From NCBI GenBank assembly GCA_050015255.1, contig JBEKBT010000004.1, positions 3,551 through 67,550 of the forward strand: a stretch of 64,000 bases of DNA, read 5' to 3'. Numbering within the stretch: position 1 is the first letter of the stretch; the number at the start of each line of letters is the position of its first letter. This document shows, in pieces, positions 34,989 through 56,158 of the stretch. The notes under the pieces were generated by a model. The model did no database searches and was not told the origin of the DNA. It saw nothing but the letters and a program-made list of their open reading frames with translations. This stretch comes from Acidimicrobiales bacterium (GTDB lineage: Bacteria > Actinomycetota > Acidimicrobiia > Acidimicrobiales > Bog-793). Made by a program: the position numbers and the translations under genes.

Positions 34989-35076
34989 ACGACCGTGAGG
35001 CACGCTGCCTCTCGGTGCCCCTCAAGCATGGCACAGCGGGTGCGGTCAACCGAAGTCGCCACGGCCACGCTCACGG

Positions 35077-35810: not shown

Positions 35811-36743
35811 ATGCAGATCGCGGACGACATCACCCAGCTCATCGGCAACACACCCCTCGTCCGGCTTCGCCGCCTGAACGAGGGCGGCGAGGCCCAGGTC
35901 GTGGCCAAGCTCGAATTTTTCAACCCCGCTCACAGCGTGAAGGACCGCATCGGGGTGGCAATGATCGACGCGGCCGAAGAGGCCGGCTTGATCGGGCCCG
36001 ACACGATCATCCTCGAGCCCACGAGTGGCAACACCGGTATCGCGCTGGCGATGGTGTGTGCAGCCCGTGGCTACAAGTGCGCCTTCACGATGCCCGAGAC
36101 CATGAGCAAGGAGCGGAGGGCGCTGCTGCGGGCCTACGGGGCCGAGCTGATCCTTACCCCGGGGCCCGAGGGCATGCCCGGGGCGATCGCCAAGGCGGAG
36201 GAGCTCGCCAAGAGCGACCTGCGGTATTTCATCCCACAGCAATTCGAAAATCCGGCCAATCCGGCTATCCACCGGGCCACCACCGCGAAGGAGATCTGGG
36301 ACGACACCGATGGCGAGGTCGACGTCGTCGTCTCCGGTGTCGGCACCGGAGGGACCATCACGGGCGTCGGCCAGGTTCTCAAGGCCCGCAAGCCGTCGGT
36401 GAAGATGATCGCCGTCGAGCCAGCGGCTTCTCCGGTCCTCTCGGGCGGCCAGAAGGGGCCTCATCCGATCCAGGGCATCGGCGCCGGCTTCGTCCCGGCG
36501 ATCCTGGACACTGGCATCGTGGACGAGATCATCACCGTCGAGAACGCGGACGCGTTCGACATCGCCCGGCGCGCGGCCCGCGAGGAAGGGCTGCTTGTTG
36601 GCATCTCGTCGGGTGCAGCGATCTGGGCGGCACTGCAGGTGGCGGCGCGTCCCGAGAGCTCAGGCAAGCTGATCGTGGTGATCATCCCGTCCTTCGGCGA
36701 GCGCTACCTCTCCACGGCGTTGTTCGAGGGCCTCACCGAGTGA
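35811..36743 (+). CDS. cysK: cysteine synthase A (O-acetylserine sulfhydrylase)
   Basis: Motifs [18 protein letters not shown] (PLP Lys), [12 protein letters not shown] and [10 protein letters not shown]. About 310 aa from ATG 35811. The upstream part of ORF 35637.. overlaps tRNA-Arg and is not coding. Confidence 0.92.
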
Positions 36744-36745
36744 GC

Positions 36746-37447
36746 ATGCTTGCGACCCTGCGGCGGGATCTGCTCTCGGCACGCGACCGCGACCCGGCGG
36801 CTCGGTCTTCGATCGAGATCGCGTTGTGCTATTCGGGCGTGCACGCCCTTTGGAGCCACCGCGTCTGTCACTCGTTGTGGCAGAACGACTTCAAGCTCCT
36901 GGCACGGGTGGGCTCGGCGCTGGCGCGCTGGCTTACCGGGGTCGAGATCCACCCCGCTGCCATCCTCGGCGAGGGCGTGTTCATCGACCATGCTAGTGGC
37001 GTGGTCATCGGCGAGACGGCTGAGGTTGGTGACGACGTGACCATCTACCAGGGCGTCACCCTTGGCGGCACGAGCCTCGACCGGGTGAAGCGTCACCCGA
37101 CGGTGGGCAACCGGGTCACCATCGGCGCCGGAGCCAAGGTTCTCGGCGCGATCACCATCGGTGACGACAGCCGCATCGGGGCCAACGCCGTCGTCGTGAA
37201 GTCGGTGCCCCCCAACTCGGTGGTGGTCGGCGTGCCGGGTCAGATAATCGCCCGCAGCCGACCCCATCGGGTCACGGACCGGCCTGACCTGGAGTCCGCC
37301 TTCATGCCAGACCTCCTCGGTTCCAGCCTGCAGTCGCTGCTGTCGCGTGTCGACGAGCTGGAGACGATCGTTGAGGGCCACAGGGACCATCACGACGTTC
37401 GCCCGTCCAAAGCCGGCGTGTGGTCCGGGGAAGACTTCTCGATCTAG
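36746..37447 (+). CDS. cysE: serine O-acetyltransferase
   Basis: [26 protein letters not shown], then hexapeptide repeats ([44 protein letters not shown]). ATG 36746 lies 2 nt after the cysK stop. Confidence 0.9.
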
Positions 37448-37468
37448 AAGCCAAAGGAGGATGATGTT

Positions 37469-37717
37469 GTGTCTGAGCCCACGGCTCCACCCGCGGACGA
37501 GGTTCTCGACTGCACCGGGTTGGCGTGCCCGCTGCCGGTCGTGAAGACCGCGCAGGCGATCAAGAATCTCTCGCCGGGGCAAGTTCTCGAGCTCCTCGCC
37601 ACTGACCCGGGCGTCGAGCCCGACATGCGCGCATGGAGCAGCCGCACAGGCAACGAACTGCTGGGCATCAGCAAGCAGGCTGACGTCTTCCATATCCTCA
37701 TCCGCCGGGTGAAGTGA
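37469..37717 (+). CDS. tusA: TusA-like sulfur carrier (SirA/YedF/YeeD family)
   Basis: 82 aa with LDCTGLACPLPVVK (the CPxP active-site Cys motif). GTG start lies 8 nt after AAGGAGG. Confidence 0.88.
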   Translation: MSEPTAPPADEVLDCTGLACPLPVVKTAQAIKNLSPGQVLELLATDPGVEPDMRAWSSRTGNELLGISKQADVFHILIRRVK

Positions 37718-37720
37718 CAG

Positions 37721-38113
37721 ATGGCGACGACGTGGGCCGACGACTCTGAGACCAAGATCCTCTACGTGCAGACGCACGGGGCGGACGACCCGGGGCGCAG
37801 CGCGACACCCTTCTTTCTTGCCGCCTCCGCGGCTGCGATGGAGTTCGAGGTCAAGATCTACTTCACGATGTACGGCCCTACCCTGCTGCGCAAGGACGTC
37901 GTGGACAAGATCGGCCCGAAGGGCGACCAGGGCCAGCCGTTGCGCTACTTCATCGAACAGGCGACCAGCCTCGGCGTCCGGCTTCTGGTCTGCCAGCCGT
38001 CGCTGGACCTCAACGACCTGGTGCTCGACGACCTGATCGACGGAGTCGAGGTCATCGGTGGCGCAGCCTTCAACGACCTCGCCGCCTCCGCCGATGCCGT
38101 GATCAGCTTCTAG
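37721..38113 (+). CDS. DsrE/DsrF-family sulfurtransferase
   Basis: 130 aa. ILYVQTHGADDPGRSATPFFLAASAAAM, a conserved Cys in RLLVCQPSL, and GAAFNDL. It starts 3 nt after the tusA stop. Confidence 0.8.
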   Translation: MATTWADDSETKILYVQTHGADDPGRSATPFFLAASAAAMEFEVKIYFTMYGPTLLRKDVVDKIGPKGDQGQPLRYFIEQATSLGVRLLVCQPSLDLNDLVLDDLIDGVEVIGGAAFNDLAASADAVISF

Positions 38114-38121
38114 GCCCGGCG

Positions 38122-38856
38122 ATGACCCTGACAGCCGGCCGGGAAGCCGAGACGGACGCCCACTACAAGGCCCCGGATGTCGCCGGCTACGCCGATGTGT
38201 CCTACGAAGTGAAGTTGCGGCTGTTCGACCAGGTGAAGGGCGATATGCGGTTCGGCGATTACCTGTACGGCTGCTATGAGTGCGGCATCTGCGTCGCCGC
38301 TTGCCCGTCGGCCAAGTTCTACGACTTCAGCCCGCGGCGCATCGCGCAGGCGGCCGCGCGCGAGGACGTGGACCTTTTCTACCAGCAGATGCAGGAGGAC
38401 ATCTGGGAGTGTTCCCAGTGCTTTTCCTGCCTGCGGTGCCCGCGCGGCAACAACCCGGGCGGGATCATCACGATCATGCGGGAGGTGGCCGTCCGCAACG
38501 GGCTGGCTTCGGCCAAGCAAGCCCTCGTCGGCTACTCGCGGATCATCTATAAGATCATGTCCACCGGCACGCAGGTCTCGCCGGACATGCTGCGGCCGGA
38601 CGCGTTCCCCGACTGGGGCCCCGAGACCGGCGACGTGGCGGACAACCTGGACCTGTGGCGCCGGGCCCTGCCTCCCGAGACGATGCACACGACCTCCTCC
38701 GGGTGGTCCGTCGCCGACAGGACGCTGGTCGAGCTCTACGTCATCTGGTTGGAGACCGGCGCCCTGGACATGATCGCGGAGGTCGATCGCGGCCTGCACT
38801 CGATCCTCCGGGAGCTGATGGAGGAACGCCTCGAGGAAGAAGGCATAGAGCTATGA
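38122..38856 (+). CDS. hdrC1: sHdrC1-like heterodisulfide reductase subunit C (2x[4Fe-4S])
   Basis: Carries CYECGICVAACP and CSQCFSCLRCP ferredoxin-type motifs. About 244 aa, as in sulfur-oxidiser hdrC1. Confidence 0.85.
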   Translation: MTLTAGREAETDAHYKAPDVAGYADVSYEVKLRLFDQVKGDMRFGDYLYGCYECGICVAACPSAKFYDFSPRRIAQAAAREDVDLFYQQMQEDIWECSQCFSCLRCPRGNNPGGIITIMREVAVRNGLASAKQALVGYSRIIYKIMSTGTQVSPDMLRPDAFPDWGPETGDVADNLDLWRRALPPETMHTTSSGWSVADRTLVELYVIWLETGALDMIAEVDRGLHSILRELMEERLEEEGIEL

Positions 38857-40106
38857 CAACCCCCATTGCGGCTCCGATCACCCTCAGGCGCGCCAAGGCG
38901 GCCGAGGAACCGGTCGCCGACCGCAGGTCGCTGGAAGATCCCCGCGCCGAGCTGCTCGAGCTGGAGCGGCAGGGAGAGCTGATCGTGCAGAAGATCGACC
39001 GGGAAGCGGTCACGGTGTCCACCAAATTCGGGCGCGAGAAGCGGATCCAGAAGGCGCACCTGTGGCACCACAAGTCCTGCGGCCAGTGCGGCCACATCCC
39101 CGGCTACTCCACCTCGATCTTCTGGGTGATGCGCAAGCTCGGCTACGACTACCACGACCCGCATGACCAGACGTCCTGCACGGCCTGGAATTATTACGCG
39201 AGCGCGACGTCCAACTCGGCTGCCCAGGCCGCCGTCGCCGTCCGCAACTTCGCGGCCGCGTACGAGAGCGGCTACTTCCCGCTCATCCACTGCGGCACCT
39301 CCTACGGTCACTACAAAGAGGTGAGGGAGGAGCTGATACGCCACCCAGAGCTCCGGGCCCAGGTCCGCGGCATCATGGCCAAACTGGGTAAGCCTCTGGT
39401 GCTGCCGGAGGAGATCGTGCACTACTCGGAGTGGTTCCACGCCTTGCGCGACGAGATCGCTGCGAAACAGGTCCGCGACGTGTCGAAAATCATCGTGACC
39501 GTCCATCCCGCGTGCCACTACTACAAGATCGTCTCCGGCGACGCGATCTACGACCCGGACATCTACGGCGGCCAGCGCACGGCCGTGGTGACCGGCTTGG
39601 CCGAGGCGCTCGGTGCCGAGGTGCGCAACTACTCGACCTGGTTCGACTGCTGTGGCTTCGGTTTCCGGCACATCTTGGTGCAGCGGGACTTCACGCGCTC
39701 GTTCGCCACACTGCGCAAGATCGAGGTGATGAAGGAGGAGGCCAACCCCGATGTCGTGCTGACTCACGACACCGGGTGCGTCACGACGCTGGACAAGAGC
39801 CAGTTCGCGGCCAGGGCGCACGGACGCAACGTCGGGCTCGCGGTGCTCAGCGAGGCGCAGTTCGCCGCCCTGGCGATGGGGGCCCACCCCTTCCGGGTGT
39901 GCCAGCTGCATTGGCATTCCGCCGATTACCGGCCGTTGCTCGAGAAGATGGGCATCGACTGGGAGCAGGCGTGGGCCGAGTTCCAGGGCGATCTGCGCCG
40001 ACTCGAGAGCGGCGAGAAGCGCTATCTCGACTGGGATGATGCCGATGGTACGCACGACGAGGGCGCGCCCCGGGTCTCGCCCGCCGGTCACGAACACGAA
40101 AATTGA
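38853..40106 (+). CDS. hdrB1: sHdrB1-like heterodisulfide reductase subunit B (CCG domains)
   Basis: ATGA overlap with hdrC1. CCG-type Cys motifs (HPACHYY, WFDCCGFGF, HDTGCVTT). Confidence 0.85.
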   Translation: MTTPIAAPITLRRAKAAEEPVADRRSLEDPRAELLELERQGELIVQKIDREAVTVSTKFGREKRIQKAHLWHHKSCGQCGHIPGYSTSIFWVMRKLGYDYHDPHDQTSCTAWNYYASATSNSAAQAAVAVRNFAAAYESGYFPLIHCGTSYGHYKEVREELIRHPELRAQVRGIMAKLGKPLVLPEEIVHYSEWFHALRDEIAAKQVRDVSKIIVTVHPACHYYKIVSGDAIYDPDIYGGQRTAVVTGLAEALGAEVRNYSTWFDCCGFGFRHILVQRDFTRSFATLRKIEVMKEEANPDVVLTHDTGCVTTLDKSQFAARAHGRNVGLAVLSEAQFAALAMGAHPFRVCQLHWHSADYRPLLEKMGIDWEQAWAEFQGDLRRLESGEKRYLDWDDADGTHDEGAPRVSPAGHEHEN

Positions 40107-40114
40107 GGTTACGA

Positions 40115-41233
40115 ATGTCCTCGGAAACGATTGTGGTCATCGGCGGGGGACCCGGTGGGCTGCGTGCGGCGCAAGGGATCGCAGAGATTGGTCGCAGGGC
40201 GGTGCTGATCGAGCAGCGCGAGTTCCTGGGCGGCACGCCGGTCGCGGAGAACTATTCCGGCCTGACTCCGCGAGGTGAGCCTGCTCAGCCACAGATCCGG
40301 CAGATGATCGATCAGGTCACTGCCGACCCGCTCATCGAAGTCCGGCTCGGTACCGAGCTTGTCGGGGTGTCCGGGGAGCCCGGGGCGTTCACCCTTAGGC
40401 TGCGTGGCGCGCAGACACTCGAGATGCCGGCGGCCGGTGGGCAAGAGGCCGAGGCGCCGGCGGCCGGCGACAACCAGACGGTCGAGTGCGGCGCGATCAT
40501 CATCGCCACCGGGTTCGGACATTTCGACCCTGGCCGGTCGACCCAGATGTACGGGTATTACGAGTTCCCCGACGTCATCACTCAGCCCGAGCTCGAGGCG
40601 ATGCTGTCCGAGCACCGGGTCCGGCGCCCGTCCAACGGCCAGCCACCGGAGCGGATCTGCTTCGTCCAGTGTGTGGGCAGCCGTGACCGTCAGATCGGCA
40701 ACGAGTACTGCTCGAAGGTGTGCTGCGGCGTGGCCTCCAAGGAGGCCATCGAGCTCCGGGAGCTGTTGCCGGATTCGAAGGTGCTCATCTTCTACATCGA
40801 CATGAGGATGTACGGCTACTGGGAGAACGAGATCTACTGGCCGGCCCAGGAACAGCACCATGTCCAGTATGTAAAGGGGCTGATCACCGAGGTGCTTCCG
40901 AAGGGTGACCGCTTGTTGGTGCGCGGCGAGGACACCACGATGGGCCGGCCGATGGAGGTGCCTATGGACCTGGTCGTGCTGTCGGTCGGCATGGAGCCGT
41001 CGCCCGGCACCCGCGAGCTGGCGAGGCTGCTCGGGGTGAAGCAGAACAAGTACGGGTTCATCGAGGCCGCCGGGGTGCCGCTCGACCCGGTCAGCACCGA
41101 CCGGGAGGGGATCTTCGCCTGTGGCGCGGCGCTCGGACCGGCAGATCTCGAGGACACGGTCTCCTCGGCGGCCGGTGCGGCCATGAGGGCGGTCGGCTAT
41201 TTACGGTCGCGTGCCGTCGCGGCTGTGAACTGA
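40115..41233 (+). CDS. hdrA: sHdrA-like FAD/[4Fe-4S] flavoprotein
   Basis: Dinucleotide fold IVVIGGGPGGLRAA and an HdrA-type Cys cluster FVQCVGSRDRQIGNEYCSKVCCG. ATG 40115 follows GAGG. Confidence 0.85.
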   Translation: MSSETIVVIGGGPGGLRAAQGIAEIGRRAVLIEQREFLGGTPVAENYSGLTPRGEPAQPQIRQMIDQVTADPLIEVRLGTELVGVSGEPGAFTLRLRGAQTLEMPAAGGQEAEAPAAGDNQTVECGAIIIATGFGHFDPGRSTQMYGYYEFPDVITQPELEAMLSEHRVRRPSNGQPPERICFVQCVGSRDRQIGNEYCSKVCCGVASKEAIELRELLPDSKVLIFYIDMRMYGYWENEIYWPAQEQHHVQYVKGLITEVLPKGDRLLVRGEDTTMGRPMEVPMDLVVLSVGMEPSPGTRELARLLGVKQNKYGFIEAAGVPLDPVSTDREGIFACGAALGPADLEDTVSSAAGAAMRAVGYLRSRAVAAVN

Positions 41234-41242
41234 GGCGGCCAC

Positions 41243-41998
41243 TTGCTGATGGCCGGTCCTGTAGTCGACACGGAGAGCGCGCTGGAGTTCCAACGCGAGA
41301 TCATGGAACAGGTAAGCGAGGCGGAATTAAAGGCCATCGCCGCTGATCTCGACCGCAAGTCGGCGGCGTTGCGAGAGCTCTTGTCCGGCGAGCCGTCCCT
41401 CTTGGGCCGCGCCGCTCTGCGGCAGGTGCTGCGTTGGGTGTTCGCTACCCGGCGGCGCGCCGACCGGATCCTGGACTCGCTCGGCCCGCAGCCGCTGGCG
41501 GCGGCCATCGCCGGGCTTCTGGCCGGTGACGAGCCCGTGGCGGACCGGATCGATCGCTTCGACGCCGCCTTCAGCGGGCGCGCCGCCCAGGTCGCACTGG
41601 CAGGCTCCGGCTTCGATCTCCCCACGGAACTGCTGCATTTCACCTCGCCCGAGCGGTACTGGCTGTGGACCAGGTGGATATTCGATCCCGATGCCCGGAC
41701 CGGTGCCTTGGCTCTGGTCACGACCGATGACGTGGATCTGGGCGCGGGAGCCACCAGGGGCGCGGTCTACCTCACCGTCGGGCGGGCAACGGCCTTTGTC
41801 GACGAGACCGGAAAGGCCGCCGGCTTTACCGTGGCGGGTCCCGGTCTGTTCGGCGTCGATGTCCTGCTGGCCGCGGTCTACGGGGTCTACATGTACACAG
41901 TCCTGCGGATGCGGATGACCCGTGAGTTCAACCGGGTGATCCCGCCGCTGCCCGATCTCATTCGCCGCCTGCTCGGCGTCTATCACCTGGAGGGCTAG
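41243..41998 (+). CDS. conserved hypothetical protein of sHdr clusters (hyp)
   Basis: About 250 aa with no recognisable cofactor motif. It occupies the hyp position between hdrA and the hdrC2/B2-type gene. The start is TTG 41243 or ATG 41249. Confidence 0.7.
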   Translation: MLMAGPVVDTESALEFQREIMEQVSEAELKAIAADLDRKSAALRELLSGEPSLLGRAALRQVLRWVFATRRRADRILDSLGPQPLAAAIAGLLAGDEPVADRIDRFDAAFSGRAAQVALAGSGFDLPTELLHFTSPERYWLWTRWIFDPDARTGALALVTTDDVDLGAGATRGAVYLTVGRATAFVDETGKAAGFTVAGPGLFGVDVLLAAVYGVYMYTVLRMRMTREFNRVIPPLPDLIRRLLGVYHLEG

Positions 41999-42002
41999 GA
42001 CC

Positions 42003-43310
42003 GTGCCTGTAGGTGGCCGGAAGATCCCGCCGGTCGCAGTGGAAAAGGAGCTGGCGACGGTCGCCTCCACCATCTCGGGGCGCGAGGTGGAGCTACCGGC
42101 GATGTGGAACCGGATGTTCGAGCCGCGGGTCCTCACCGACTACGGCCCGGATGGATTCGCCGCGATCTCGACCCTGCCCGGTGGTGAGTCGCTGGAATGG
42201 TGTTACGGCTGCGGCAAGTGCGTGCCGGTCTGCCCGGTCGACATGGTGGGCGACTATGGCCCGCGCAAGATCCACCGCAAGGTCCAGACCGGAACTCAGC
42301 TGCTGGCCGACGCCGATCTGTGGCTGTGCACCACTTGCGCCAACTGCCTGCGGGTCTGTCCGAAACAGGTCGACATGACCGCCATCATGCCGGCCGTGCG
42401 CGAGGCCGCGCTCAGCAGTGCGGAGGTGCCGGCGGAGCTGCAGGACGTCTTCGAGAAGACCTTCCGGCACGGCAACGCGCTCGGGCAGAGTCAGCGGCGC
42501 CGGGCGCAGTGGGCAGACAGCGCCGGGGTCCCCGTGCGGGTGCTGGCCAAGGATCCGGCACCCGTCGACGTGCTTTTCTACGTGGAGGACTACTGGAGCT
42601 TCCACCCCCGCGGCCAGGACGCGGCCCGCGCCTTCGCCAGGGTGGCCTCGGCGCTCGGCATCGACTGGGCGATTCTCGGCCCGGAGGAGAAGACGCTCGG
42701 TGACTCTCAGCGTCTTGCCGGCGAGAAGGGCCTGTTCGACGCGCTGGTCGAAGATGTCACCACGGTCCTGGCGAAATACGAGTTCGCCCGGATCGTGACG
42801 CCTGACCCGCATGCTTTCAACGCCCTGGTCAGGGAGTACCCGCGGCGCGGGCACACCTTCGATGCGCTGCACTACACACAGCTCCTCGCGCCCCTGGTCG
42901 GTCAGATCGACTGGGCCAGGGAGCTGAACTTGCGGGTGACCTTTCACGATCCGTGCTATTTGGGAAGGCAGCACGGCGAGTACGACGCCCCCCGGACGCT
43001 GCTCGAGGCGATTCCCGGCGTCGAAGTTGTCGAGATGGGCCGCTGCCGGGAGAACGCCTACTGCTGCGGTGGTGGCGGCGGCGGCATGTGGCTGGACGGT
43101 TTCACGAGAGATCACACGACCGAGCGCCTTTCCGAGCGCCGGGTTCGCGAGGCCGCCCAGACCGGGGCCGACGTGCTGGCGGTCTGCTGTCCTTATGAGG
43201 TGTCCAGGTTCACCGACGCCGCCAAGGCGACCGGTCACGAGGACCTGCGTGTGTGCGACGTCATCGAGCTGATGGACGAGGCGATGCGGGACGAGGCGCA
43301 AGGTGGTTGA
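42003..43310 (+). CDS. fused HdrC2-HdrB2-like Fe-S/CCG protein (HdrB3/HdrD-like)
   Basis: The N-terminal part has two ferredoxin motifs (CYGCGKCVPVCP, CTTCANCLRVCP). The C-terminal part has two CCG domains (HDPCYLGR, YCCGGGGG, VCCPYE). The exact start is uncertain. Confidence 0.82.
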   Translation: MPVGGRKIPPVAVEKELATVASTISGREVELPAMWNRMFEPRVLTDYGPDGFAAISTLPGGESLEWCYGCGKCVPVCPVDMVGDYGPRKIHRKVQTGTQLLADADLWLCTTCANCLRVCPKQVDMTAIMPAVREAALSSAEVPAELQDVFEKTFRHGNALGQSQRRRAQWADSAGVPVRVLAKDPAPVDVLFYVEDYWSFHPRGQDAARAFARVASALGIDWAILGPEEKTLGDSQRLAGEKGLFDALVEDVTTVLAKYEFARIVTPDPHAFNALVREYPRRGHTFDALHYTQLLAPLVGQIDWARELNLRVTFHDPCYLGRQHGEYDAPRTLLEAIPGVEVVEMGRCRENAYCCGGGGGGMWLDGFTRDHTTERLSERRVREAAQTGADVLAVCCPYEVSRFTDAAKATGHEDLRVCDVIELMDEAMRDEAQGG

Positions 43311-44331: not shown

Positions 44332-44795
44332 TGGAAGAAACTGCGCTCGTCATCGTGTCCGGCTTCCCGCTCGCTCTCGACCGGCGCTACCAAGCGGAGA
44401 CGCACATGTGGGTGCTGGATACCGGACCGGGCCGGGTGAGGATCGGGATGGACCCGCTCGGGATCGAGACCAGCGGAACCCTGGCTCAGCTGTCGTTTCT
44501 GCCGACAGGGACCGAGCTCACAGCAGGCCGGCCGTTCGGCCAGCTGGAGGCGGCCAAGTTCGTGGGCCCGCTCCTCAGCCCCGTCTCAGGCGCCATGCTG
44601 GCCGTGAACGACGCGGTCGCCCGTGACCCGGGCCTGGCAGAGCGGGACCCGTACGGGGCCGGCTGGCTGATCGAGGCGAGCGTGAGCGAAACCGCCGGCG
44701 AGCTGTCGGGGCTTCTCGCCGAGCCGGCCGAGATCACCGCCTGGTTCGCGGCCAGGATCGCCCACTACCGGCTGAACGGGCTGCTCGCGCAATGA
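44331..44795 (+). CDS. lbpA: GcvH-like lipoate-binding protein LbpA (copy 1)
   Basis: 154 aa. THMWVL...VRIGMDP, the lipoyl-Lys context GQLEAAKFVGPLLSPVSGAMLAVN, and DPYGAGWL. Confidence 0.85.
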   Translation: MEETALVIVSGFPLALDRRYQAETHMWVLDTGPGRVRIGMDPLGIETSGTLAQLSFLPTGTELTAGRPFGQLEAAKFVGPLLSPVSGAMLAVNDAVARDPGLAERDPYGAGWLIEASVSETAGELSGLLAEPAEITAWFAARIAHYRLNGLLAQ

Positions 44796-46926: not shown

Positions 46927-46937
46927 AGAGAGACGCC

Positions 46938-48023: not shown

Positions 48024-48041
48024 ACAGAGAGGTGGGCTGAG

Positions 48042-48833: not shown

Positions 48834-48840
48834 ACGACAA

Positions 48841-49803
48841 GTGAGCGGCAATGTGATGGTGCTCGCCGAGCACACCGGCATGCAGGTCTCCGAGGGGACC
48901 TACGAGCTGATCGGCAAGGCGCACGAGCTGGCATCCGCGCTGGGCGGCCTGACCGAGGTGGCCCTGCTCGGACCCGCCGAACTGGCAGGCCAGCTCGGCG
49001 GCGCCGACGTCGTGGTCTCCGTCGATCACCCGGCCCTTGCGGAGTACCTGCCGGAGGCCTACGAGCGGGCGCTGTTGGAGGTGCTGGCACAGCGATCCCC
49101 GCGGCTGTTGCTGATCTCGAACGGGACTGTCGGCCTGGACCTGGCGGCCGCGCTCTCGGTGCGCTGGGACGCGCCACTGGCCGCTTATGTCAGCGCGCTC
49201 GAGATCGACGACGGCGTCGTGACCGCCACTGCGCAGATCCTCGGCGGGAAGGTGCTCGCGGAGCTCGAGCTGCCCGGTGAGCGCGCGATCGCCACCGTGC
49301 TCGGAGGCGCCTTAAGCGTGGAGACGGGCCGCGGCGCCCTCGGCGCGCAGGTGGTGCCCATCACGCCGCCGGCCGGGCTCGACGCGCTGCGGATGTCGCT
49401 TCGACAGGTCGTCGAAGCCGACGGGGGAGACCTCGACATCAGCTCGGCCGAGATGCTGGTCTCGGTCGGCCGCGGGATCGAGTCGCAGGAGAACATGGAG
49501 ATCGTGGCTGAGCTCGCCGACGCTCTCGGCGTCCCGCTTTCGGCGTCGCGCCCCGTGGTGGACGCAGGATGGCTGCCGAAGACCCGCCAGGTGGGCCAAT
49601 CGGGCTTGAAAGTCAAGCCCCGGGTGTATCTCGCGCTCGGCATCTCTGGAGCTCCCGAGCACCTGGAGGGCATGCGCAACGCCGAGCTGATCGTGGCCTG
49701 CAACACCGATCCTGGAGCGCCGATCTTCGGCGTCGCCCACTACGGCACGACCGTGGATCTCTTCGATCTGGTTCCGGAGCTCGTGGGCAAGGTCCGCGGC
49801 TGA
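48841..49803 (+). CDS. etfA: electron transfer flavoprotein alpha subunit
   Basis: C-terminal FAD-binding region with VSVGRGI, SRPVVDAGW, QVGQSGLKVKPRVYLALGISGAPEH and IVACNTDPGAPIF. Confidence 0.88.
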   Translation: MSGNVMVLAEHTGMQVSEGTYELIGKAHELASALGGLTEVALLGPAELAGQLGGADVVVSVDHPALAEYLPEAYERALLEVLAQRSPRLLLISNGTVGLDLAAALSVRWDAPLAAYVSALEIDDGVVTATAQILGGKVLAELELPGERAIATVLGGALSVETGRGALGAQVVPITPPAGLDALRMSLRQVVEADGGDLDISSAEMLVSVGRGIESQENMEIVAELADALGVPLSASRPVVDAGWLPKTRQVGQSGLKVKPRVYLALGISGAPEHLEGMRNAELIVACNTDPGAPIFGVAHYGTTVDLFDLVPELVGKVRG

Positions 49804-49805
49804 CC

Positions 49806-51968
49806 ATGACGGGCCAGCTCGGCCTGGTGGGCACGGCGGTGACCCGGCCGGTCTTCGAGGGCATCGGCCCGCTCGGAAAGGCGATCTTCTACGCGGTGGC
49901 CGCTGTGTCGACGGCCGTCTTCGCCTGGGGGGTCTGGCACCGGGTGCGGAAATACCGTATCGGCCGGGCGGCGGGGCGCGGGCCGACGATCCGGGCTGCT
50001 CTCGGCGGCCGGCTGGGCTCTATCGGCAAGGGGGCATCGGTGGCGAGAGGCAACCGCGCGACCGGTGTGGCGCACTTCCTCATCTTCTGGGGCTTCCTGG
50101 TCGCCTTCCTGGCGACGGTCATCCTCACGATCGACACCGACGTCGTCCGGAACCTCTCCCGGCTGATCGCCGGGCACGAGGACAGCTTCTTTCACGGCAC
50201 GTTCTTTATCGTCTACACCTTCGCGGTAGACACGTTGGGATTCGCGTTTCTCCTCGCCCTCGTCTACATGGTGGTCCGTCGAGGCGTGCGCAGACCCTGG
50301 CGTCTCGGCTACAGCCGGGCGGGCACGCCCGCCGGCGGCTACTCCCGCAAGGCCATGGTGGAGGGCGACTGGCTTTTCCTGGGACTGCTCCTGGCCGTCC
50401 TCGTCACCGCTTATGTGCTGACCGGCCTGCGGATCCTCGGCCAGCACATGCCGTGGTTCACCGTGTTCAGCCCGTTCGCCAGGGTCTTCGCCGAGGCCTT
50501 TTCCGGCCTCGGCATGACGGCGGCCCAGGCCGTGAGCGCCCACACCGTCTTGTGGTGGGTGCACGCCGGCCTCGCGCTGAGCTTCATCGCCTACATCCCC
50601 TACTCCAAGGCCATGCACATGCTCCTCGACGGGGTGAACCTGGTCGCCACGGACCGGTCGGCGACGCTCGCGCTACCCGCGCCGGTGGCGGACCACCCGG
50701 GCTATCAGGAGATCTCCGACTTCACCTGGAAAGAGCTGCTCGACCTCGACGCGTGCACGAGATGCGGCCGCTGCCACGAGGTGTGCCCGGCACGCGCCGG
50801 CGGGGCGCCGCTCTCGCCGCGCGACCTGATCCTCGACCTGCGCCAGTGGGTGGACACTTCGACAGGGGGGATCACGCTGCTGGACCGCGAGCGGAGGCCT
50901 GAGCGCACGGGCCCGCTCGCGAAGCCCGACGGAGTCAGGATCGCCGGGGACGTGATCGATGCCGGCGCGTTGTGGTCCTGCACGACGTGCATGCATTGCA
51001 TTGACGTCTGCCCGGTGGGCGTCGAGCACGTGCCCACGATCGTCCAATTACGGCGCAGCCTGGTCGACGAGGGAACCATGGACGCCACCTTGCAGCAGGC
51101 CCTGCAGAACCTGGCCACACAGGGCAACTCGCTCGGGAAGTCGGCCCGGATGCGAGGCCGTTGGACCCGTGAGCTGGACTTCGAGATCCCAGACGCCCGC
51201 AAGCACCCGGTTAAGTACCTATGGTTCGTTGGCGACTTCGCCAGTTTCGACGAGCGGCTGCAGGAGAGTTCCCGCATCCTCGCCAGGATCCTGCACGACG
51301 CGGGCGTCGATTTCGGCCTGTTGTACGAGGCGGAGCGCAACGCGGGCAACGACGTGCGCCGGGTCGGCGAGGAGGGCCTGTTCGAGGTGCTCGCCGAGCA
51401 CAACCTCGAGGCCCTACGCGAGGCCAGCTTCGACGAGATCTTCACGACCGACCCGCACACGCTCAACGCCCTGCGCAACGAGTACCCCGCGCTGGGGGCG
51501 AGCTACCCGGTCTGGCACTACACCGAGCTGCTCGCCCAGTTGTTAGAGGGCGGCGCCATCGGCGTCGGGCCGCTTGGCTACCGGGTCACCTACCACGATC
51601 CGTGCTATCTGGCCCGTTACAACGGCGTGGTCGAGGCGCCCCGGCGGATCCTGCGGGCGCTCGGCTGCGAACTGATCGAGATGCCCCGCAACGGCGCGGA
51701 CACCTTCTGCTGCGGCGCAGGCGGCGGCCGGATCTGGATGGAGGACAGCCTCCTCAAGGAGCGGCCGAGCGAGAACCGGATCGGCGAGGCACTGCGCCTG
51801 GGCGTGGGACAGTTCGTCGTTGCCTGCCCGAAGGACGTGACCATGTTCTCCGATGCGGTCAAGACTGTCCGGGCTGATGATCGGCTCGCCGTCCGCGACA
51901 TCACGTTGCTGGTACAGGAGGCCATCGCAAGGCTTGCCGAGCCCGGCGTCGTCGGAGAGACGGTGTGA
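49806..51968 (+). CDS. membrane-anchored Fe-S oxidoreductase (NarI/DsrM-like TM module fused to an HdrD/DsrK-like module; EMO-type Etf:quinone oxidoreductase candidate)
   Basis: About 5 N-terminal TM helices with conserved His (VAHFLIFWGF, HTVLWWVHAGL). Then CTRCGRCHEVCP and CTTCMHCIDVCP, then CCG domains (HDPCYLARYNG, FCCGAGGG, VACPKD). ATG 49806 lies 2 nt after the etfA stop. Confidence 0.8.
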   Translation: MTGQLGLVGTAVTRPVFEGIGPLGKAIFYAVAAVSTAVFAWGVWHRVRKYRIGRAAGRGPTIRAALGGRLGSIGKGASVARGNRATGVAHFLIFWGFLVAFLATVILTIDTDVVRNLSRLIAGHEDSFFHGTFFIVYTFAVDTLGFAFLLALVYMVVRRGVRRPWRLGYSRAGTPAGGYSRKAMVEGDWLFLGLLLAVLVTAYVLTGLRILGQHMPWFTVFSPFARVFAEAFSGLGMTAAQAVSAHTVLWWVHAGLALSFIAYIPYSKAMHMLLDGVNLVATDRSATLALPAPVADHPGYQEISDFTWKELLDLDACTRCGRCHEVCPARAGGAPLSPRDLILDLRQWVDTSTGGITLLDRERRPERTGPLAKPDGVRIAGDVIDAGALWSCTTCMHCIDVCPVGVEHVPTIVQLRRSLVDEGTMDATLQQALQNLATQGNSLGKSARMRGRWTRELDFEIPDARKHPVKYLWFVGDFASFDERLQESSRILARILHDAGVDFGLLYEAERNAGNDVRRVGEEGLFEVLAEHNLEALREASFDEIFTTDPHTLNALRNEYPALGASYPVWHYTELLAQLLEGGAIGVGPLGYRVTYHDPCYLARYNGVVEAPRRILRALGCELIEMPRNGADTFCCGAGGGRIWMEDSLLKERPSENRIGEALRLGVGQFVVACPKDVTMFSDAVKTVRADDRLAVRDITLLVQEAIARLAEPGVVGETV

Positions 51969-52017
51969 TGGCCGGCCACGATCAGAACAACGCCGGAACC
52001 GGACGGGAGACGAAGCG

Positions 52018-52452
52018 ATGACCATCGTCAACAAATGCAACCTACCCGAGGACCTGTACTACGTGGTGGGCAAGCACGTTTGGGCGCGCCGTGACGGCGA
52101 TCTGGTGACAGTCGGGATGACCGACGTCGCGCAGAACATGGCGAAGACCATCGTCGCGGTGACACCGAAGGCCGCGGGCAAATCAGTCGAGAAAGGTCGG
52201 AACATCGCCACCGTGGAGAGCGGCAAGTGGGTCGGCCCGGTCTCCGCGCCGATAAGCGGCGAGATCGTGGCGGTCAACGACGCTCTCGTCGCCTCGCCGA
52301 GCCTGGTCAACTCCGATCCCTATGGCGCCGGCTGGGTCGCCCGGTTGCGCCCGTCCGACTGGGAAAGCGATGTCGCCGACCTTGTCACCGGGCCGGAGGG
52401 CATCGAGGCTTACCGCCAGTTCCTCGATGCTGAGGGGATCACCTGCGGCTGA
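52018..52452 (+). CDS. lbpA: GcvH-like lipoate-binding protein LbpA (copy 2)
   Basis: 144 aa. KHVWAR...VTVGMTD, the lipoyl-Lys context IATVESGKWVGPVSAPISGEIVAVN, and DPYGAGWV. Confidence 0.85.
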   Translation: MTIVNKCNLPEDLYYVVGKHVWARRDGDLVTVGMTDVAQNMAKTIVAVTPKAAGKSVEKGRNIATVESGKWVGPVSAPISGEIVAVNDALVASPSLVNSDPYGAGWVARLRPSDWESDVADLVTGPEGIEAYRQFLDAEGITCG

Positions 52453-52537
52453 GCCGTCGAGCCCGTGAGACGCGACTGGGGACGGCATCGGCGCCCCTCG
52501 GGCATACGACGACTCCGAGTCGGTGCCAACCAACTGC

Positions 52538-52571
52538 AGATTAGCCATGTAATCTAGCAGGAAGATAGGAT
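52538..52571 (+). promoter_or_regulatory. candidate operator palindrome and promoter upstream of the dsrE3-like / encapsulin / desulfurase genes
   Basis: AGATTAGCCATGTAATCT (52538-52555; GATTA-N6-TAATC) lies in a locally AT-rich stretch of the 222-nt gap. Possible -35 TTAGCC and -10 TAGGAT (52566-52571). A related GATTA-N8-TAATC occurs upstream of the Rrf2 gene at 58919-58936. Confidence 0.3.
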
Positions 52572-52674
52572 ATCGCAGGTCGCTGATCTCGCTCATCAGC
52601 CCTGGACCGCAGCACCGTCACGCGGCGCCCGGCCTCCCCTCGGGAAGCCGCCGCCGAGTTAGGAGGGAAGTGAC

Positions 52675-53205
52675 ATGGACGACACTGACACCGGAGCCGT
52701 TGCCTCGGCGGCGGCCTCCGGCGCGGACGAGCCCAAGCGAATGGCGATCATCTGCTGGAGCAACGACCTCGACCGGGTATGGCCGGTGATGATCCTGGCC
52801 ACTACGGGCGCCGCCTCCGGTCTCGAGGTGGATGTCTTCTTCACGTTCTGGGGGTTGCGGGTGCTGCAGAAGAACGAGAAGAGGGTCACGGGCCAGAACT
52901 GGATGCAAAAAGGAGAGTCGCTGTTCGACCGCGGTGGCAGCGAGCACCTCAAGCTGAGCAAGGTGCACTTCGCAGGAATGGGGACCTCCATGATCAAGAC
53001 GCTGGCCAAGCAGCACAAGGTCGCCAGCGTGACCGAGATGATGGAGATGGCCATCGACGTCGGCGTGCGGCTGCACCCGTGCCAGATGACCATGGACCTT
53101 TACGGGCTGTCGACGTCGGACTTCATCGACGGGTTGCAGCCCTCCCTTGGCGCTGCCAGCTTCATCGACATGGCCGCCAAGGCCGACATCCAGCTGTTCA
53201 TCTGA
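52675..53205 (+). CDS. DsrE/DsrF/DrsH-like family protein (DsrE3-type sulfurtransferase candidate)
   Basis: 176 aa. MAIICWSNDLDRVWPVMILATTGAASG, a conserved Cys in RLHPCQMTMDL, and GAASFIDMA. A strong AGGAGGGAAG lies upstream of ATG 52675. Confidence 0.78.
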   Translation: MDDTDTGAVASAAASGADEPKRMAIICWSNDLDRVWPVMILATTGAASGLEVDVFFTFWGLRVLQKNEKRVTGQNWMQKGESLFDRGGSEHLKLSKVHFAGMGTSMIKTLAKQHKVASVTEMMEMAIDVGVRLHPCQMTMDLYGLSTSDFIDGLQPSLGAASFIDMAAKADIQLFI

Positions 53206-53366
53206 CATCACCACAGAGCCCCGCGACACGAGAAGGGCTCGATTCGGAGGCCAATTGGAGAGACAGTCCACGTCGAAATGCCCGATCCCGCTAATACTTG
53301 ACGGCTTTGTCCGACCCGCATCTGCGGTTACGTGGTACGGGGCAGTCCACAACGAAAGGTTCAGCA

Positions 53367-54305
53367 ATGCCCAAAGCAGCCAGTGACCAGCCGACAAATC
53401 TCGCGCTGACCGACGACGCAGCGCGCCAACTCACCAATGCCACCAAAAGCACCGCACAGCTCGAGACGATCACGCCCCGCTGGCTGGTTCAGATGCTGCA
53501 GTGGGTCCCGGTCGAGGCAGGTATCTACCGGCTCAACCGGGTCAAGGATCCGAGGTCGGTCACTGTGGCCACCCCGCCCCGAGACGAGTCGGAGCTGCCG
53601 ACGACCTACGTCGGCTACTACGAGAAGCCACGTGAGTACTTCCTGAACACGGTGGCCACCATCGTCGACATCCACACCCGCATCTCCGATCTCTACAGCA
53701 GCCCGTTCGACCAGATCGCCGAGCAGATCAGGCTCACGATCGAGACGGTCAAAGAGCGCCAGGAGAGCGAGCTCATCAACAACCCGGACTACGGGCTGCT
53801 CGCGGTCGCCGATGCCGGTCAGCACCTCTCCACCCTCACCGGCCCGCCCACGCCCGATGACTTCGACGAGCTGATCACGAAGGTCTGGAAAGAGCCGGCG
53901 TTCTTTCTTGCCCACCCGCTCGCCATCGCCGCCTTCGGCCGTGAATGCACGCGCCGCGGCGTCCCGCCCGCGACCGTGAGCATCCACGGATCGCAATTCA
54001 TCACCTGGCGCGGCCTGCCCATCGTCCCCTCCGACAAGGTGCAGATCGACCACGGTAAGACCAAGGTGCTCCTGCTGCGCGTCGGTGAGCGGCGCCAGGG
54101 CGTGATCGGCCTGTACCAGCCCGGCCTGACCGGGGAGCAGTCGCCGGGGCTCTCGGTGCGGTTCATGGGCATCAGCCGCAACGCCATCGCCTCCTATCTG
54201 ATCTCGCTGTACTACTCGCTCGCCGTGCTCACGCCCGATGCGCTCGCAGTTCTCGACGACGTCGAGATCGGCAAGTTCCATGACTACTCACACACCTACC
54301 GGTGA
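53367..54305 (+). CDS. Family 2A encapsulin shell protein (MMP-I / SrpI-like, HK97 fold, no cNMP domain)
   Basis: 312 aa. LTDDAARQLTNATKSTAQLETITPRWLVQMLQWVPVEAGIYRLNRV, DIHTRISDLYSSPFDQIAEQIRLTIETVKERQESELINNPDYGLL, FFLAHPLAIAAFGRECTRRGVPP, GLSVRFMGISRNAIASYL. As I recall it, this is close to collinear with the Mycobacterium leprae major membrane protein I family. ATG 53367 follows GAAAGG. Confidence 0.9.
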   Translation: MPKAASDQPTNLALTDDAARQLTNATKSTAQLETITPRWLVQMLQWVPVEAGIYRLNRVKDPRSVTVATPPRDESELPTTYVGYYEKPREYFLNTVATIVDIHTRISDLYSSPFDQIAEQIRLTIETVKERQESELINNPDYGLLAVADAGQHLSTLTGPPTPDDFDELITKVWKEPAFFLAHPLAIAAFGRECTRRGVPPATVSIHGSQFITWRGLPIVPSDKVQIDHGKTKVLLLRVGERRQGVIGLYQPGLTGEQSPGLSVRFMGISRNAIASYLISLYYSLAVLTPDALAVLDDVEIGKFHDYSHTYR

Positions 54306-56040
54306 CGGTGTGAGCGCCGCTCCTCCGTGGTTGCCGGACGAGGCGACGCTGACCCGGTTGGCCACCGAGTTCTTCGGCCCCATGCCGGGTCACGAGACAG
54401 GACCGGCCCTCCCGGCCGATCCGACAGCGGCCCTGCACGTGCCACAGCCGTCGGCTGAACCGGCCGACTACCAGGCGCCCGCCGTGGTCTCTGGTTACCC
54501 GCCTGCGGCCGACGTGCCGGGGTACCAGCCGCCCGATCTGCTCTCGAGCTACCACCGGGCCGCATCGGTCCCGGGCCGACTGGCGGCTCTCGCCTCTCAG
54601 CCGCCGGCCCTCTCCGTACCGGGCGTGCCGGCTGCCAGCGCCGCCGCGATCGGGGGCGCCACGAGGTCGGATCAGCTGGAGCGGGCATTGAATCTGCCTG
54701 GCGCCGCCCAGGCTGGTACGCCCTCGTTCTACTTCATCGAGGAACGCCAGCCGCCAGCTGGACTGCTGACCACTCCCGGCCCTCGGACCGCGGCGCCAGT
54801 GGATGCCTATCCGGCCTTTCACGTCGAGGCGGTGCGGCGGGACTTCCCGATCCTGCACGAGCGGATCCACGGACGACAGCTCGTCTGGCTCGACAACGGC
54901 GCCACGACCCAGAAGCCGCAGGTGGTCATCGACCGGTTGGCGTCCTTCTACTCGCATGAGAACTCGAACATCCACCGCTCCGCGCATTCTCTTGCGGCGC
55001 GATCCTCCGATGCCTACGAAGGCGCCCGGAAGAAGGTCGCGGACTTCCTCGGCGCGCCGTCGGCCGCGGACGTCGTGTTCACCCGCGGCACGACCGAGGC
55101 GATCAACCTGGTCGCCCAGGCCTGGGGCCGCCAGCACGTCGGCCGGGACGACGAGATCGTGATCTCGCACCTCGAGCATCACGCCAACATCGTCCCGTGG
55201 CAGCAGCTGGCCGCCGAGACCGGGGCGAAGCTGAAGGTCATCCCCGTCGACGATGACGGCCGGCTGCTCCTCGACGCCTACGGCGACCTGCTGAGCGAGC
55301 GGACCAGGCTGGTCTCGGTCGCGCACGTCTCCAATGTGCTGGGCACGATCGTCCCGGTGAAAGAGGTGATAGACGCGGCGCACCGCGTCGGCGCCAGGGT
55401 GCTGATCGACGGGGCGCAGGCCGTCGCGCACATGGTCGTCGACGTTCAGGACATGGACGCGGACTTCTATGTGTTCTCCGGGCACAAGATATTCGGTCCC
55501 ACCGGCATCGGCGCCCTGTACGGCAAGTCCGACCTCCTCGAGGAGATGCCGCCGTGGCAGGGCGGCGGGAACATGATCTCCGACGTCACTTTGGAGCGGA
55601 CCATCTACCAACGCCCGCCGGCCAAGTTCGAGGCGGGGACGGGCAACATCGCCGACGCCGTCGGGCTGGGCACCGCCCTCGACTACCTGAGCCGGCTCGG
55701 GCGGAGCATCATCGAGCGCTACGAGCACGAATTGCTCCAGTACGCCATCGCCGAGATCCGCAGCGTCCCCGGACTTCGCCTGATCGGGACCGCTCCGGAG
55801 AAGGCGAGCGTTCTCACCTTCGTGCTGGACGGTTACCGACCGGAGGAGGTGGGCTCAGCGCTGGATAGCGAGGGCATCGCCGTGCGCGCCGGTCACCACT
55901 GCGCCCAGCCGATCCTGCGCCGCTACGGGTTGGAGTCGGCCGTGCGCCCATCGCTGGCGATGTACAACACCTACGCCGAGGTCGACCTGCTCGTCGCCGC
56001 GCTGCGCAGACTTTCCGCGGACGCCGGCAACCGCCGCTGA
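54280..56040 (+). CDS. SufS/CsdA-type cysteine desulfurase with a ~190-aa disordered N-terminal encapsulin cargo-loading domain
   Basis: The N-terminus is Pro/Ala-rich and carries LTRLATEFF, like the conserved LARLANEFF-type loading motif of Family 2A cargo. The catalytic domain has FPILHERIHGRQLVWLDNGATTQKP, HHANIVPW, SGHK (PLP Lys) and RAGHHCAQP (catalytic Cys). ATG 54280 overlaps the shell gene by 26 nt. An alternative GTG at 54310 lies 4 nt after the shell stop. Confidence 0.9.
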   Translation: MTTHTPTGDGVSAAPPWLPDEATLTRLATEFFGPMPGHETGPALPADPTAALHVPQPSAEPADYQAPAVVSGYPPAADVPGYQPPDLLSSYHRAASVPGRLAALASQPPALSVPGVPAASAAAIGGATRSDQLERALNLPGAAQAGTPSFYFIEERQPPAGLLTTPGPRTAAPVDAYPAFHVEAVRRDFPILHERIHGRQLVWLDNGATTQKPQVVIDRLASFYSHENSNIHRSAHSLAARSSDAYEGARKKVADFLGAPSAADVVFTRGTTEAINLVAQAWGRQHVGRDDEIVISHLEHHANIVPWQQLAAETGAKLKVIPVDDDGRLLLDAYGDLLSERTRLVSVAHVSNVLGTIVPVKEVIDAAHRVGARVLIDGAQAVAHMVVDVQDMDADFYVFSGHKIFGPTGIGALYGKSDLLEEMPPWQGGGNMISDVTLERTIYQRPPAKFEAGTGNIADAVGLGTALDYLSRLGRSIIERYEHELLQYAIAEIRSVPGLRLIGTAPEKASVLTFVLDGYRPEEVGSALDSEGIAVRAGHHCAQPILRRYGLESAVRPSLAMYNTYAEVDLLVAALRRLSADAGNRR

Positions 56041-56158
56041 GCGACACCGGGGTGCGGGCGGCGACGAGCACCGGGTGGGACGCCACCCCGGGGCATCGCC
56101 GCCCACCCCGGGGCTGTCGGATGCCCACTTGGTCCGGTCTGCTACCTTCCCATAGAGC

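Follow-up and report, generated by a model that had tools for sequence, protein, structure and literature searches.

A type II sHdr-LbpA gene cluster adjoining a Family 2A desulfurase encapsulin in one clade of Acidimicrobiales

Gene content of the locus

We analysed a 64,000-nucleotide (nt) stretch of DNA from an Acidimicrobiales bacterium, hereafter the window, in which a sulfur gene cluster occupied positions 35811-56040 of the + strand. Open reading frames (ORFs) were called with guidance from the G + C content of third codon positions (GC3), and the window proteins were then scanned with Pfam and NCBIfam profiles. The cluster carried, all on the + strand, cysKE, TusA and DsrE genes, a type II sHdr-LbpA gene set, EtfBA-EMO genes, a DsrE2-like gene, and the shell and cargo genes of a Family 2A encapsulin. 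This physical linkage is genuine and long-lived, is restricted to one clade, and is undescribed in the searchable literature.

Every gene named in the original prediction, which had been made from the letters of this DNA alone, was found at or very near its predicted position. The tight run from cysK to the second lbpA gene contained 18 genes on recount, not 19 as counted earlier. Each junction in the run, computed from the coordinates, was an overlap or a gap of at most 49 nt, which bears out the earlier claim that no gap exceeded 60 nt. The two spacers that follow were also as claimed: 222 nt between lbpA2 and the DsrE2-like gene, and 161 nt between the latter and the shell gene. The shell and cargo genes overlapped.

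At the 5′ end, cysK (35811-36743), encoding O-acetylserine sulfhydrylase (cysteine synthase A), matched TIGR01139 with 468 bits (cutoff 351). The serine O-acetyltransferase gene cysE (36740-37447; TIGR01172, 235 bits against a cutoff of 211) overlapped the cysK stop codon. After the frame and start were checked, the start of cysE was placed at either 36740 (GTG) or 36746 (ATG).

The sHdr-LbpA-Etf module

The module located at 37469-53205 began with two sulfur-transfer genes. The first encoded a TusA-like carrier (37469-37717; PF01206, E = 6.9e-23) with a CPLP cysteine motif, and the second a DsrE-type sulfurtransferase of 130 amino acids (aa; 37721-38113; PF02635 and PF13686) with its cysteine in VCQPS. 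Five core genes followed consecutively at 38122-43310. The shdrC1 product (38122-38856) was ferredoxin-like, with two [4Fe-4S] motifs, and was matched by Fer4_8 and related domains and in part by HdrC models. The CCG-domain catalytic subunit encoded by shdrB1 (38853-40106; PF02754) scored 125 bits with the HdrB model; a score under the cutoff is expected for the sulfur-oxidiser type. The Fe/S flavoprotein encoded by shdrA (40103-41233) matched Pyr_redox_2 and, partially, HdrA models (213-234 bits). The conserved hypothetical gene of shdr clusters, shdrH (41243-41998), had no match in the Pfam and NCBIfam profile scans; its position was conserved in all related clusters. The last core gene, shdrB3 (42003-43310), encoded an HdrC2-HdrB2 fusion, with Fer4 at residues 64-123 and CCG at residues 312-397 of one protein. 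This fusion marks type II, for which the operational definition of Tanabe et al. (2024, PMC11094781) requires that shdrC1, B1, A, H and B3 lie together in synteny.

The lipoate genes lay downstream of the core. The first LplA-like protein (43303-44331; PF21948, E = 9e-22) matched the ligase catalytic domain in part (PF21948 positions 22-160 of 200), and may be a non-catalytic partner, as judged from this match. It was also the least conserved product of the cluster across relatives, with 59-83% identity. The second was an sLpl(AB)-like lipoate-protein ligase (45778-46926; PF21948, E = 1e-36; TIGR00545, 128 bits). The lipoate-binding protein encoded by lbpA1 (44331-44795; PF01597) had the GcvH fold and a lipoylatable lysine in EAAKF, and that encoded by lbpA2 (52018-52452; PF01597, E = 1e-34) had one in ESGKW. 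Two radical-SAM lipoyl synthase genes were LipS1-like (44792-45781; NF053742, 222 bits, below the cutoff of 230) and LipS2-like (46938-48023; NF053743, 193 bits, below the cutoff of 270). Between the LipS2-like gene and lbpA2 were etfB (48042-48833; PF01012), etfA (48841-49803; PF01012 and PF00766) and an emo-like gene (49806-51968) for a 720-aa ETF:(methyl)menaquinone oxidoreductase (EMO). The EMO-like protein carried Fer4 and CCG domains and an N-terminal membrane anchor, with four predicted helices within residues 26-213.

By its predicted gene content, the module is a complete type II sHdr-LbpA system. As in the described type II clusters (shdrC1B1AHB3-etfAB-emo; PMC11094781), the full core set is co-directional and preceded by TusA and a DsrE-type protein, and it is accompanied by two LbpA, LplA-like ligases, LipS1/LipS2-like synthases, EtfAB and a membrane-anchored EMO. 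The sulfur transferases are completed by the DsrE2-like gene at the 3′ end. No Sox or SoxT-type sulfur import genes were present among the annotated genes of the window. To our knowledge, type II sHdr systems are barely characterised.

The encapsulin shell and its desulfurase cargo

The shell gene (53367-54305) encoded a 312-aa Family 2A encapsulin that matched NF041162 with 507 bits (cutoff 380), as well as PF19307. Among solved shells in the PDB, which gave E values from 1e-132 to 3e-151, the matches included 8t6r (E = 3e-151) and 6x8m (SrpI; E = 2e-141). The protein had no cyclic nucleotide monophosphate (cNMP)-binding domain or insertion, and the Family 2B model matched its C-terminal half only, so it belongs to the SrpI/MMP-I type.

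The overlapping cargo gene (54280-56040) matched the encapsulin cargo cysteine desulfurase model NF041166 with 833 bits (cutoff 800). Its product combined a SufS-type core, with SGHK and GHHCAQP motifs, and an N-terminal extension of ~190 aa rich in proline and alanine. Two motifs of the extension, LTRLATEFFG and AGTPSFYFIEE, resembled the published loading motifs LARLANEFFS and AASPYYFLDG. An adjoining SufS-type desulfurase with such an extension and such motifs is what characterises a Family 2A cargo.

The 53367-56040 module is thus predicted to be a Family 2A encapsulin with a cysteine desulfurase cargo, for which assembly of a T=1 shell, cargo loading and storage of elemental sulfur (S0) are putative. 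It resembles SrpI/CyD of Synechococcus elongatus, the Acinetobacter baumannii system and mycobacterial MMP-I in that shell and cargo score above their cutoffs and their genes overlap. Shell and cargo by themselves could be read as the minimal shell-cargo layout. Unlike the described Family 2A layouts with rhodanese or serine acetyltransferase, the cluster has no rhodanese gene, and its cysE lies 16 kb upstream with the sHdr block in between. It also differs from known Family 2A loci in having a DsrE2-like carrier gene and a whole sulfur-oxidation operon directly upstream.

The seam between the modules

The gene at the seam (52675-53205) encoded a 176-aa, predicted soluble DsrE2-like sulfur carrier (PF13686, E = 9e-45) with its cysteine in PCQMT and no predicted membrane helices. 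It scored 106 bits with NF047629, under the equivalog cutoff of 210, and matched PDB entry 3pnx with E = 2e-16. The earlier label of this gene as DsrE3-like was not established; on these profile scores the protein appears nearer to DsrE2, below the threshold of that model, and is best described simply as a PF13686 member. The same gene was present without an encapsulin in L088, L089, L095 and L096, four sister clusters of other actinobacteria. It is therefore the normal end of an actinobacterial type II sHdr cluster and not a gene of the encapsulin operon.

Both spacers contained conserved elements. An AT-rich element ~120 nt upstream of the DsrE2-like gene was conserved in the window, L009, L087, L090, L092 and L094, and more weakly in L010, L012 and L091. 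Within it was a perfect 6-6-6 palindrome, AGATTAGCCATGTAATCT (52538-52555), a candidate operator or promoter. The palindrome was found nowhere else in the window, and an operator common to both modules was rejected on this ground. Upstream of the shell gene, alignment of the window with L007-L013 and L090 revealed a conserved region of ~90 nt (53275-53366, + strand), with stretches such as GACCCGCA...GGTACGGGGCAG...GAAAGG. This region was kept in L007 and L008, both of which lack the sHdr block, and is likely a separate promoter or leader.

An Rfam scan of 34500-59000 (E ≤ 0.1) returned three tRNAs only, with no riboswitch or leader RNA in the spacers. A scan of 51900-58500 for consensus promoters and terminators gave no hit in the spacers, although this method performs poorly on high-GC actinobacterial DNA. 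Taken with the conserved elements, the layout most likely corresponds to three transcription units, of which the first runs from cysK to lbpA2, the second is the DsrE2-like gene alone, and the third comprises shell and cargo. In L093, an IS110-family transposase gene (L093 positions 17976-19067) separated lbpA2 from the DsrE2-like gene; the sHdr-encapsulin cluster of this locus was otherwise intact.

Relatives on the encapsulin side

The 80 GTDB loci most similar to the window shell were checked against all window proteins. The identical shell protein was also found on at least 24 metagenome contigs with the same synteny, which indicates one population. The nearest genomes were metagenome-assembled genomes (MAGs) labelled Acidimicrobiales or Acidimicrobiaceae, with names that indicate peat or bog samples, some of them from the SPRUCE site. 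The loci recovered included no cultured relative with the arrangement.

Five GTDB species representatives, all Acidimicrobiaceae (L009-L013), matched the window in gene order from the first LplA-like gene up to the cargo, at 67-91% protein identity. The right flank of the window recurred, among the 80 loci, only in L009. Another two loci, L007 and L008, are described below, and the remaining 73 had no Hdr, Etf or LbpA gene within 10 kb. Their layouts were divergent cysE-cysK in other Actinomycetota, cysK-cysE-shell-cargo or cysE-shell-cargo in Proteobacteria, and shell-cargo alone, in agreement with the published operon types. The statement in the original prediction that cysK and cysE are common neighbours of Family 2A encapsulins was thus borne out.

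L007 and L008 carried the shells closest to that of the window (92%). Both contained cysK and the first 249 nt of cysE, joined directly to the 92 nt upstream of the shell gene. The segment corresponding to window positions 36989-53274 was absent and cysE was shortened to a 113-aa ORF, with cysK, shell and cargo kept. In the shell tree, which like the other tree of this study was built by neighbour joining and carried no support values, all sHdr-linked shells formed one clade, with L007 and L008 nested inside. Because of the truncated cysE and this nesting, the two loci look like cases in which the whole sHdr block was deleted and the shell retained.

In L010 (12636-20840), and also in L011, the region 3′ of the linked shell and cargo genes held a reversed cysK paralog and a second shell gene without an adjacent desulfurase. 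Further genes there encoded a Cys/Met-metabolism pyridoxal phosphate (PLP) enzyme, a metallo-beta-lactamase-rhodanese fusion and a flavin adenine dinucleotide (FAD) oxidoreductase. The fusion protein at L010 resembles persulfide dioxygenase.

Relatives on the sHdr side

We also examined the contexts of LipS1-like homologs with 79-89% identity. L090 and L093 contained the full run from TusA to cargo, with Aminotran_3 and epimerase genes at the left flank, and L091 had the same run with yet another left flank. The complete cysK-to-cargo gene order of the window was repeated in L094. As a set, L009-L013, L090, L091, L093 and L094 have the stretch from TusA to the desulfurase in common. Across the linked loci there were three left flanks (cysKE, Aminotran_3/epimerase, or hypothetical genes) and three right flanks (a 509-aa membrane protein, a reversed cysK, or Rrf2). 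The cysKE flank was confined to the sub-lineage of the window; elsewhere, the left flank was unrelated. The earlier observation that the sHdr block sits between cysKE and the encapsulin pair therefore holds in the window, and its cysKE side does not extend beyond this sub-lineage.

Other relatives had the sHdr genes and no complete encapsulin. L087 corresponded to window positions 37451-53219 at 85% nucleotide identity, followed by the last 580 nt of the cargo gene, frameshifted. By this alignment, L087 has lost the shell gene together with the 5′ portion of the cargo gene through a deletion. Both L087 and L119 retained all sHdr genes, and the desulfurase was present only as a frameshifted 3′ remnant. 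L092 matched window positions 37288-53223, after which came an unrelated aminotransferase gene on the opposite strand. The breakpoints at window positions 53219, 53223 and 53275 thus cluster in the spacer between the DsrE2-like and shell genes.

The sister actinobacterial clusters (L088, L089, L095 and L096; L089 is labelled Streptosporangiaceae) contained no shell. They have ArsR-type regulators directly upstream, whereas the window has cysK-cysE; they have two lbpA genes before the final DsrE2-like gene, whereas the window has one; and their DsrE2-like gene is followed by a Rieske protein or unrelated genes, whereas that of the window is followed by the desulfurase encapsulin operon.

L094 (2949-17250) differed from the window by ~76 frameshifting indels, all of them in the TusA, DsrE, sHdr, Lpl, LipS2-like, Etf and EMO genes, with zero frameshifts in cysK, cysE, lbpA1, the LipS1-like gene, lbpA2, the DsrE2-like gene, shell and cargo. 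The one frameshift that could be checked was absent from L105, a 97.9%-identical contig of another (Joint Genome Institute, JGI) assembly, which makes assembly error likely despite the uneven distribution of the indels. We have set this apparent sHdr decay aside as evidence.

Distribution and origin of the linkage

A metagenome scan with the DsrE2-like protein yielded 80 loci, which were classed by their flanks, placed on a gene tree, and dereplicated at 97% nucleotide identity. In clade A, with two lbpA genes upstream, a Rieske protein gene and no shell followed the DsrE2-like gene in all 11 of the 11 informative clusters. Clade B, composed of Acidimicrobiales, contained ~33 clusters, and in 20-21 of them shell and cargo came directly after the DsrE2-like gene. 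The rest of clade B comprised five clusters of the L092 type, which form one group in the tree and have no shell downstream, one with a cargo remnant only, two in which the DsrE2-like gene was relocated in front of tusA, and 3-4 with other neighbours, such as an EamA transporter. In L118 (2236-7339) and L133 (6976-7881), neither with a shell, the DsrE2-like gene was followed by an EamA-family transporter gene, and in L118 this was followed in turn by genes for an FdhD sulfurtransferase and a formate-dehydrogenase-like molybdoenzyme.

The adjacency of sHdr and encapsulin exceeds chance, because it recurs in ~20 dereplicated lineages. The original prediction had named lack of conservation in related genomes as grounds to abandon it; the linkage proved to be conserved, within one Acidimicrobiales clade. 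Linked shells occur throughout clade B, on its deepest branches too, so that the linkage appears ancestral there. From the gene tree and the flank classes, the adjacency was lost at least four times in clade B. Together with the shell tree, this distribution fits a single origin of the linkage in one Acidimicrobiales clade and not a recurrent association.

Chromosomal setting

The tRNA-Arg(TCT) gene at 35566-35640 (+ strand; ARAGORN and Rfam) marks the left edge of the variable slot that holds the cluster. The region upstream of cysK (34786-35640) contained, according to ARAGORN, tRNA-Lys(CTT) and tRNA-His(GTG) on the - strand in addition to tRNA-Arg(TCT) on the + strand. These tRNAs bracketed a small Glyoxalase_6 gene (35077-35436, - strand).

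To the right of the cargo gene, a 509-aa membrane protein, a 139-aa protein, Rrf2 (58389-58844) and UvrD constitute chromosomal backbone. In L177 the same backbone markers occurred without sHdr or encapsulin and with unrelated genes between them. The block therefore occupies a variable slot. Base composition was uniform across the region, with no GC anomaly. An integrative island at tRNA-Arg was considered and rejected: there was no repeat of the tRNA 3′ end in the window, no integrase among the annotated genes, and no GC anomaly.

The 509-aa protein (56159-57688, + strand) had ~11 predicted membrane helices and no Pfam or NCBIfam match. Its homologs formed only 24 clusters, of which the sole organism-labelled one was an Acidimicrobiales MAG, and the protein is apparently confined to this clade. 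The gene adjoins the 3′ end of the cargo gene in several relatives, and a backbone copy free of sHdr and encapsulin is present in L177. Rrf2 was rejected as a dedicated regulator of the cluster, since it is part of the backbone and occurs in L177 without either module. In L012 (12653-13237), an Rrf2-family regulator gene with 44% identity to that of the window followed the cargo gene co-directionally at a distance of 21 nt. Elsewhere in the window, a 1342-aa ribonucleotide reductase of class II (B12-dependent; 15137-19165, + strand) carried a LAGLIDADG homing-endonuclease domain at residues 390-472, which probably marks an intein.

Relation to described systems

The claim of the original prediction that this coupling had not been described agrees with our literature searches, in which no describing paper was found. 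No paper was found that contained both "encapsulin" and "sHdr". The sole co-mention of "encapsulin" and "heterodisulfide reductase" was unrelated, and that of "sHdr" and "cysteine desulfurase" was a general review. When "encapsulin" was combined with DsrE, TusA or LbpA terms, none of the results listed mentioned an encapsulin. The passages obtained from the supplements of PMC8346489, all of Family 1 type, held no Family 2A entry with CCG, GcvH or ETF neighbours. The survey of type II sHdr systems lists associated genes, and encapsulins are not among them; it reports that type II is common in Actinomycetota and that the in vivo role of type II in general is inferred (PMC11094781). On the encapsulin side, four operon types have been surveyed, with or without rhodanese and with or without serine acetyltransferase beside the shell, and none with sHdr. 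Rhodanese is present in about half of the desulfurase-encapsulin operons. Sulfur starvation induces the desulfurase encapsulins that have been characterised, and sulfide failed to induce one of them. How stored S0 is remobilised has been raised as an open question, with rhodanese as the only suggestion (PMC10836720).

The nearest conceptual parallel is found elsewhere. The route from sulfur globules to reverse dissimilatory sulfite reductase (rDsr) in purple sulfur bacteria runs through rhodanese, TusA, DsrE2, DsrEFH and DsrC. In concept, stored S0 would here also pass through TusA/DsrE-type carriers to a cytoplasmic oxidising complex. The two differ in the store, here a putative cytoplasmic shell filled from cysteine and there periplasmic globules filled from sulfide or thiosulfate, and in the oxidising enzyme, here sHdr and not rDsr; the link between store and enzyme is hypothetical in the present case.

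Interpretation

The locus is most likely a clade-specific cluster of two known, self-sufficient modules that were joined by one ancestral rearrangement in uncultured Acidimicrobiales of peat and soil. We favour, with about even confidence, a reading in which the two are autonomous and loosely associated in function, drawing on the same cysteine and sulfane-sulfur pool. In the sHdr module, TusA and the DsrE-type carriers would deliver protein-bound sulfane sulfur to sHdrC1B1A-H-B3 for oxidation. The lipoate arm on LbpA would be made by the ligases and LipS1/LipS2-like synthases of the cluster itself, and EtfAB with membrane-bound EMO would pass the electrons to menaquinone. In the encapsulin module, the desulfurase cargo would strip sulfur from cysteine, and S0 would accumulate within the shell; cysteine would be supplied by cysK-cysE in the sub-lineage of the window only. 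The modules are probably under separate promoters and each could work alone. They would most likely stay joined through co-selection or co-inheritance as a block, not through an obligatory hand-off from shell to sHdr. The gene identities, junction, tree and separability come from the present analysis and the module functions from the literature; we infer the interaction between the modules.

Either module can persist at this locus when its partner is absent from it, which makes a single obligate pathway unlikely. The original prediction had proposed such a pathway. Its module identities and its conserved junction stand, and the apparent single origin, the separability of the modules and their separate upstream elements speak against joining them into one pathway.

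Several observations weigh against a merely loose association. The junction persisted in ~20 lineages through turnover of the flanks, beyond the expectation for simple hitch-hiking. No intrinsic terminator was found in either spacer, in a scan that is weak for high-GC actinobacteria, and the spacers of L091 are just 68 nt and 57 nt long. With such short spacers and no terminator found, read-through co-transcription is possible, and the coupling could be tighter than we propose. Lastly, L010 and L011 hold a second, phylogenetically distinct Family 2A shell nearby, which hints that the sHdr-linked copy is specialised.

The same observations speak for a dedicated pathway, a possible if doubtful alternative. 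The shell would then serve as a cytoplasmic sulfur store, much like a sulfur globule. Its S0 would be remobilised by way of the DsrE2-like protein, TusA and DsrE, and its oxidation by sHdr would yield energy; the DsrE2-like protein would stand in for the rhodanese of other operons. In its fullest form, to which we would assign a rather low probability, a Family 2A shell was recruited as a dedicated reservoir in which cysteine sulfur, or sulfide fixed by CysK, is laid down as S0 and drawn off through these carriers to type II sHdr, with electrons leaving via EtfAB/EMO to the quinone pool. A cysteine-bearing carrier gene indeed lies directly upstream of the shell, where other operons place rhodanese, and remobilisation of the stored sulfur is an acknowledged question (PMC10836720). 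Moreover, since Sox and SoxT-type genes are missing from the annotated genes of the window, sHdr needs some internal source of sulfane sulfur. However, the linkage appears to have arisen only once, and none of the other type II sHdr or Family 2A loci sampled shows it. Shell adjacency was lost independently at least four times, and sHdr was lost once with the shell kept. The DsrE2-like gene is an ordinary member of shell-less sHdr clusters; one conserved element precedes it and a separate one precedes the shell gene, and the cluster is split by an IS110 element in L093. In addition, the known desulfurase encapsulins answer to sulfur starvation and not to sulfide, the opposite of what is expected for dissimilatory oxidation.

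In the reverse case, one chance rearrangement would have created the adjacency and vertical inheritance alone would have preserved it, with no functional relation. Such neutral persistence, which we consider quite unlikely, is consistent with the apparent single origin, the recurrent breakpoints in the spacer between the DsrE2-like and shell genes, and the loss of either module; the window block also sits in a variable slot, where L177 has unrelated genes between the same backbone markers. Nevertheless, the junction outlived both flanks in several sub-lineages, and both modules handle cysteine or sulfane sulfur. More sulfur genes gather at this place, namely cysKE in the window and, in L010, the reversed cysK, the Cys/Met PLP enzyme and the metallo-beta-lactamase-rhodanese fusion.

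A biosynthetic role is highly improbable. In it, the desulfurase would provide sulfur for the many Fe-S clusters in sHdr and EMO, and also for those that the LipS1/LipS2-like synthases sacrifice. In its favour, Fe-S proteins are unusually numerous in this cluster, two radical-SAM lipoyl synthases are encoded there, and cysteine desulfurases are the general sulfur source for Fe-S and lipoyl cofactors. Against it, this desulfurase has the complete loading extension of a cargo protein and exceeds the cutoff of the cargo-specific model, so that it should be sealed in the shell, away from scaffold proteins, and the sHdr clusters of sister lineages work without a linked desulfurase.

Significance

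The locus joins two open questions, namely how S0 is released from desulfurase shells and what purpose its storage serves, and where sHdr obtains cytoplasmic sulfane sulfur in heterotrophic Actinomycetota without Sox-type import. A DsrE-family carrier at the seam of a conserved adjacency offers a concrete hypothesis on sulfur release. Related populations with only one module (L007 and L008 as opposed to L087 and the L092 type) occur in similar peat and bog metagenomes, some from SPRUCE, and constitute a natural experiment. If the reservoir reading were true, it would give an encapsulin a bioenergetic role and would identify the long-sought remobilisation route. If the link is loose or neutral, the locus is still a fifth genomic context for desulfurase encapsulins, and a documented case of sulfur gene clusters assembling and coming apart.

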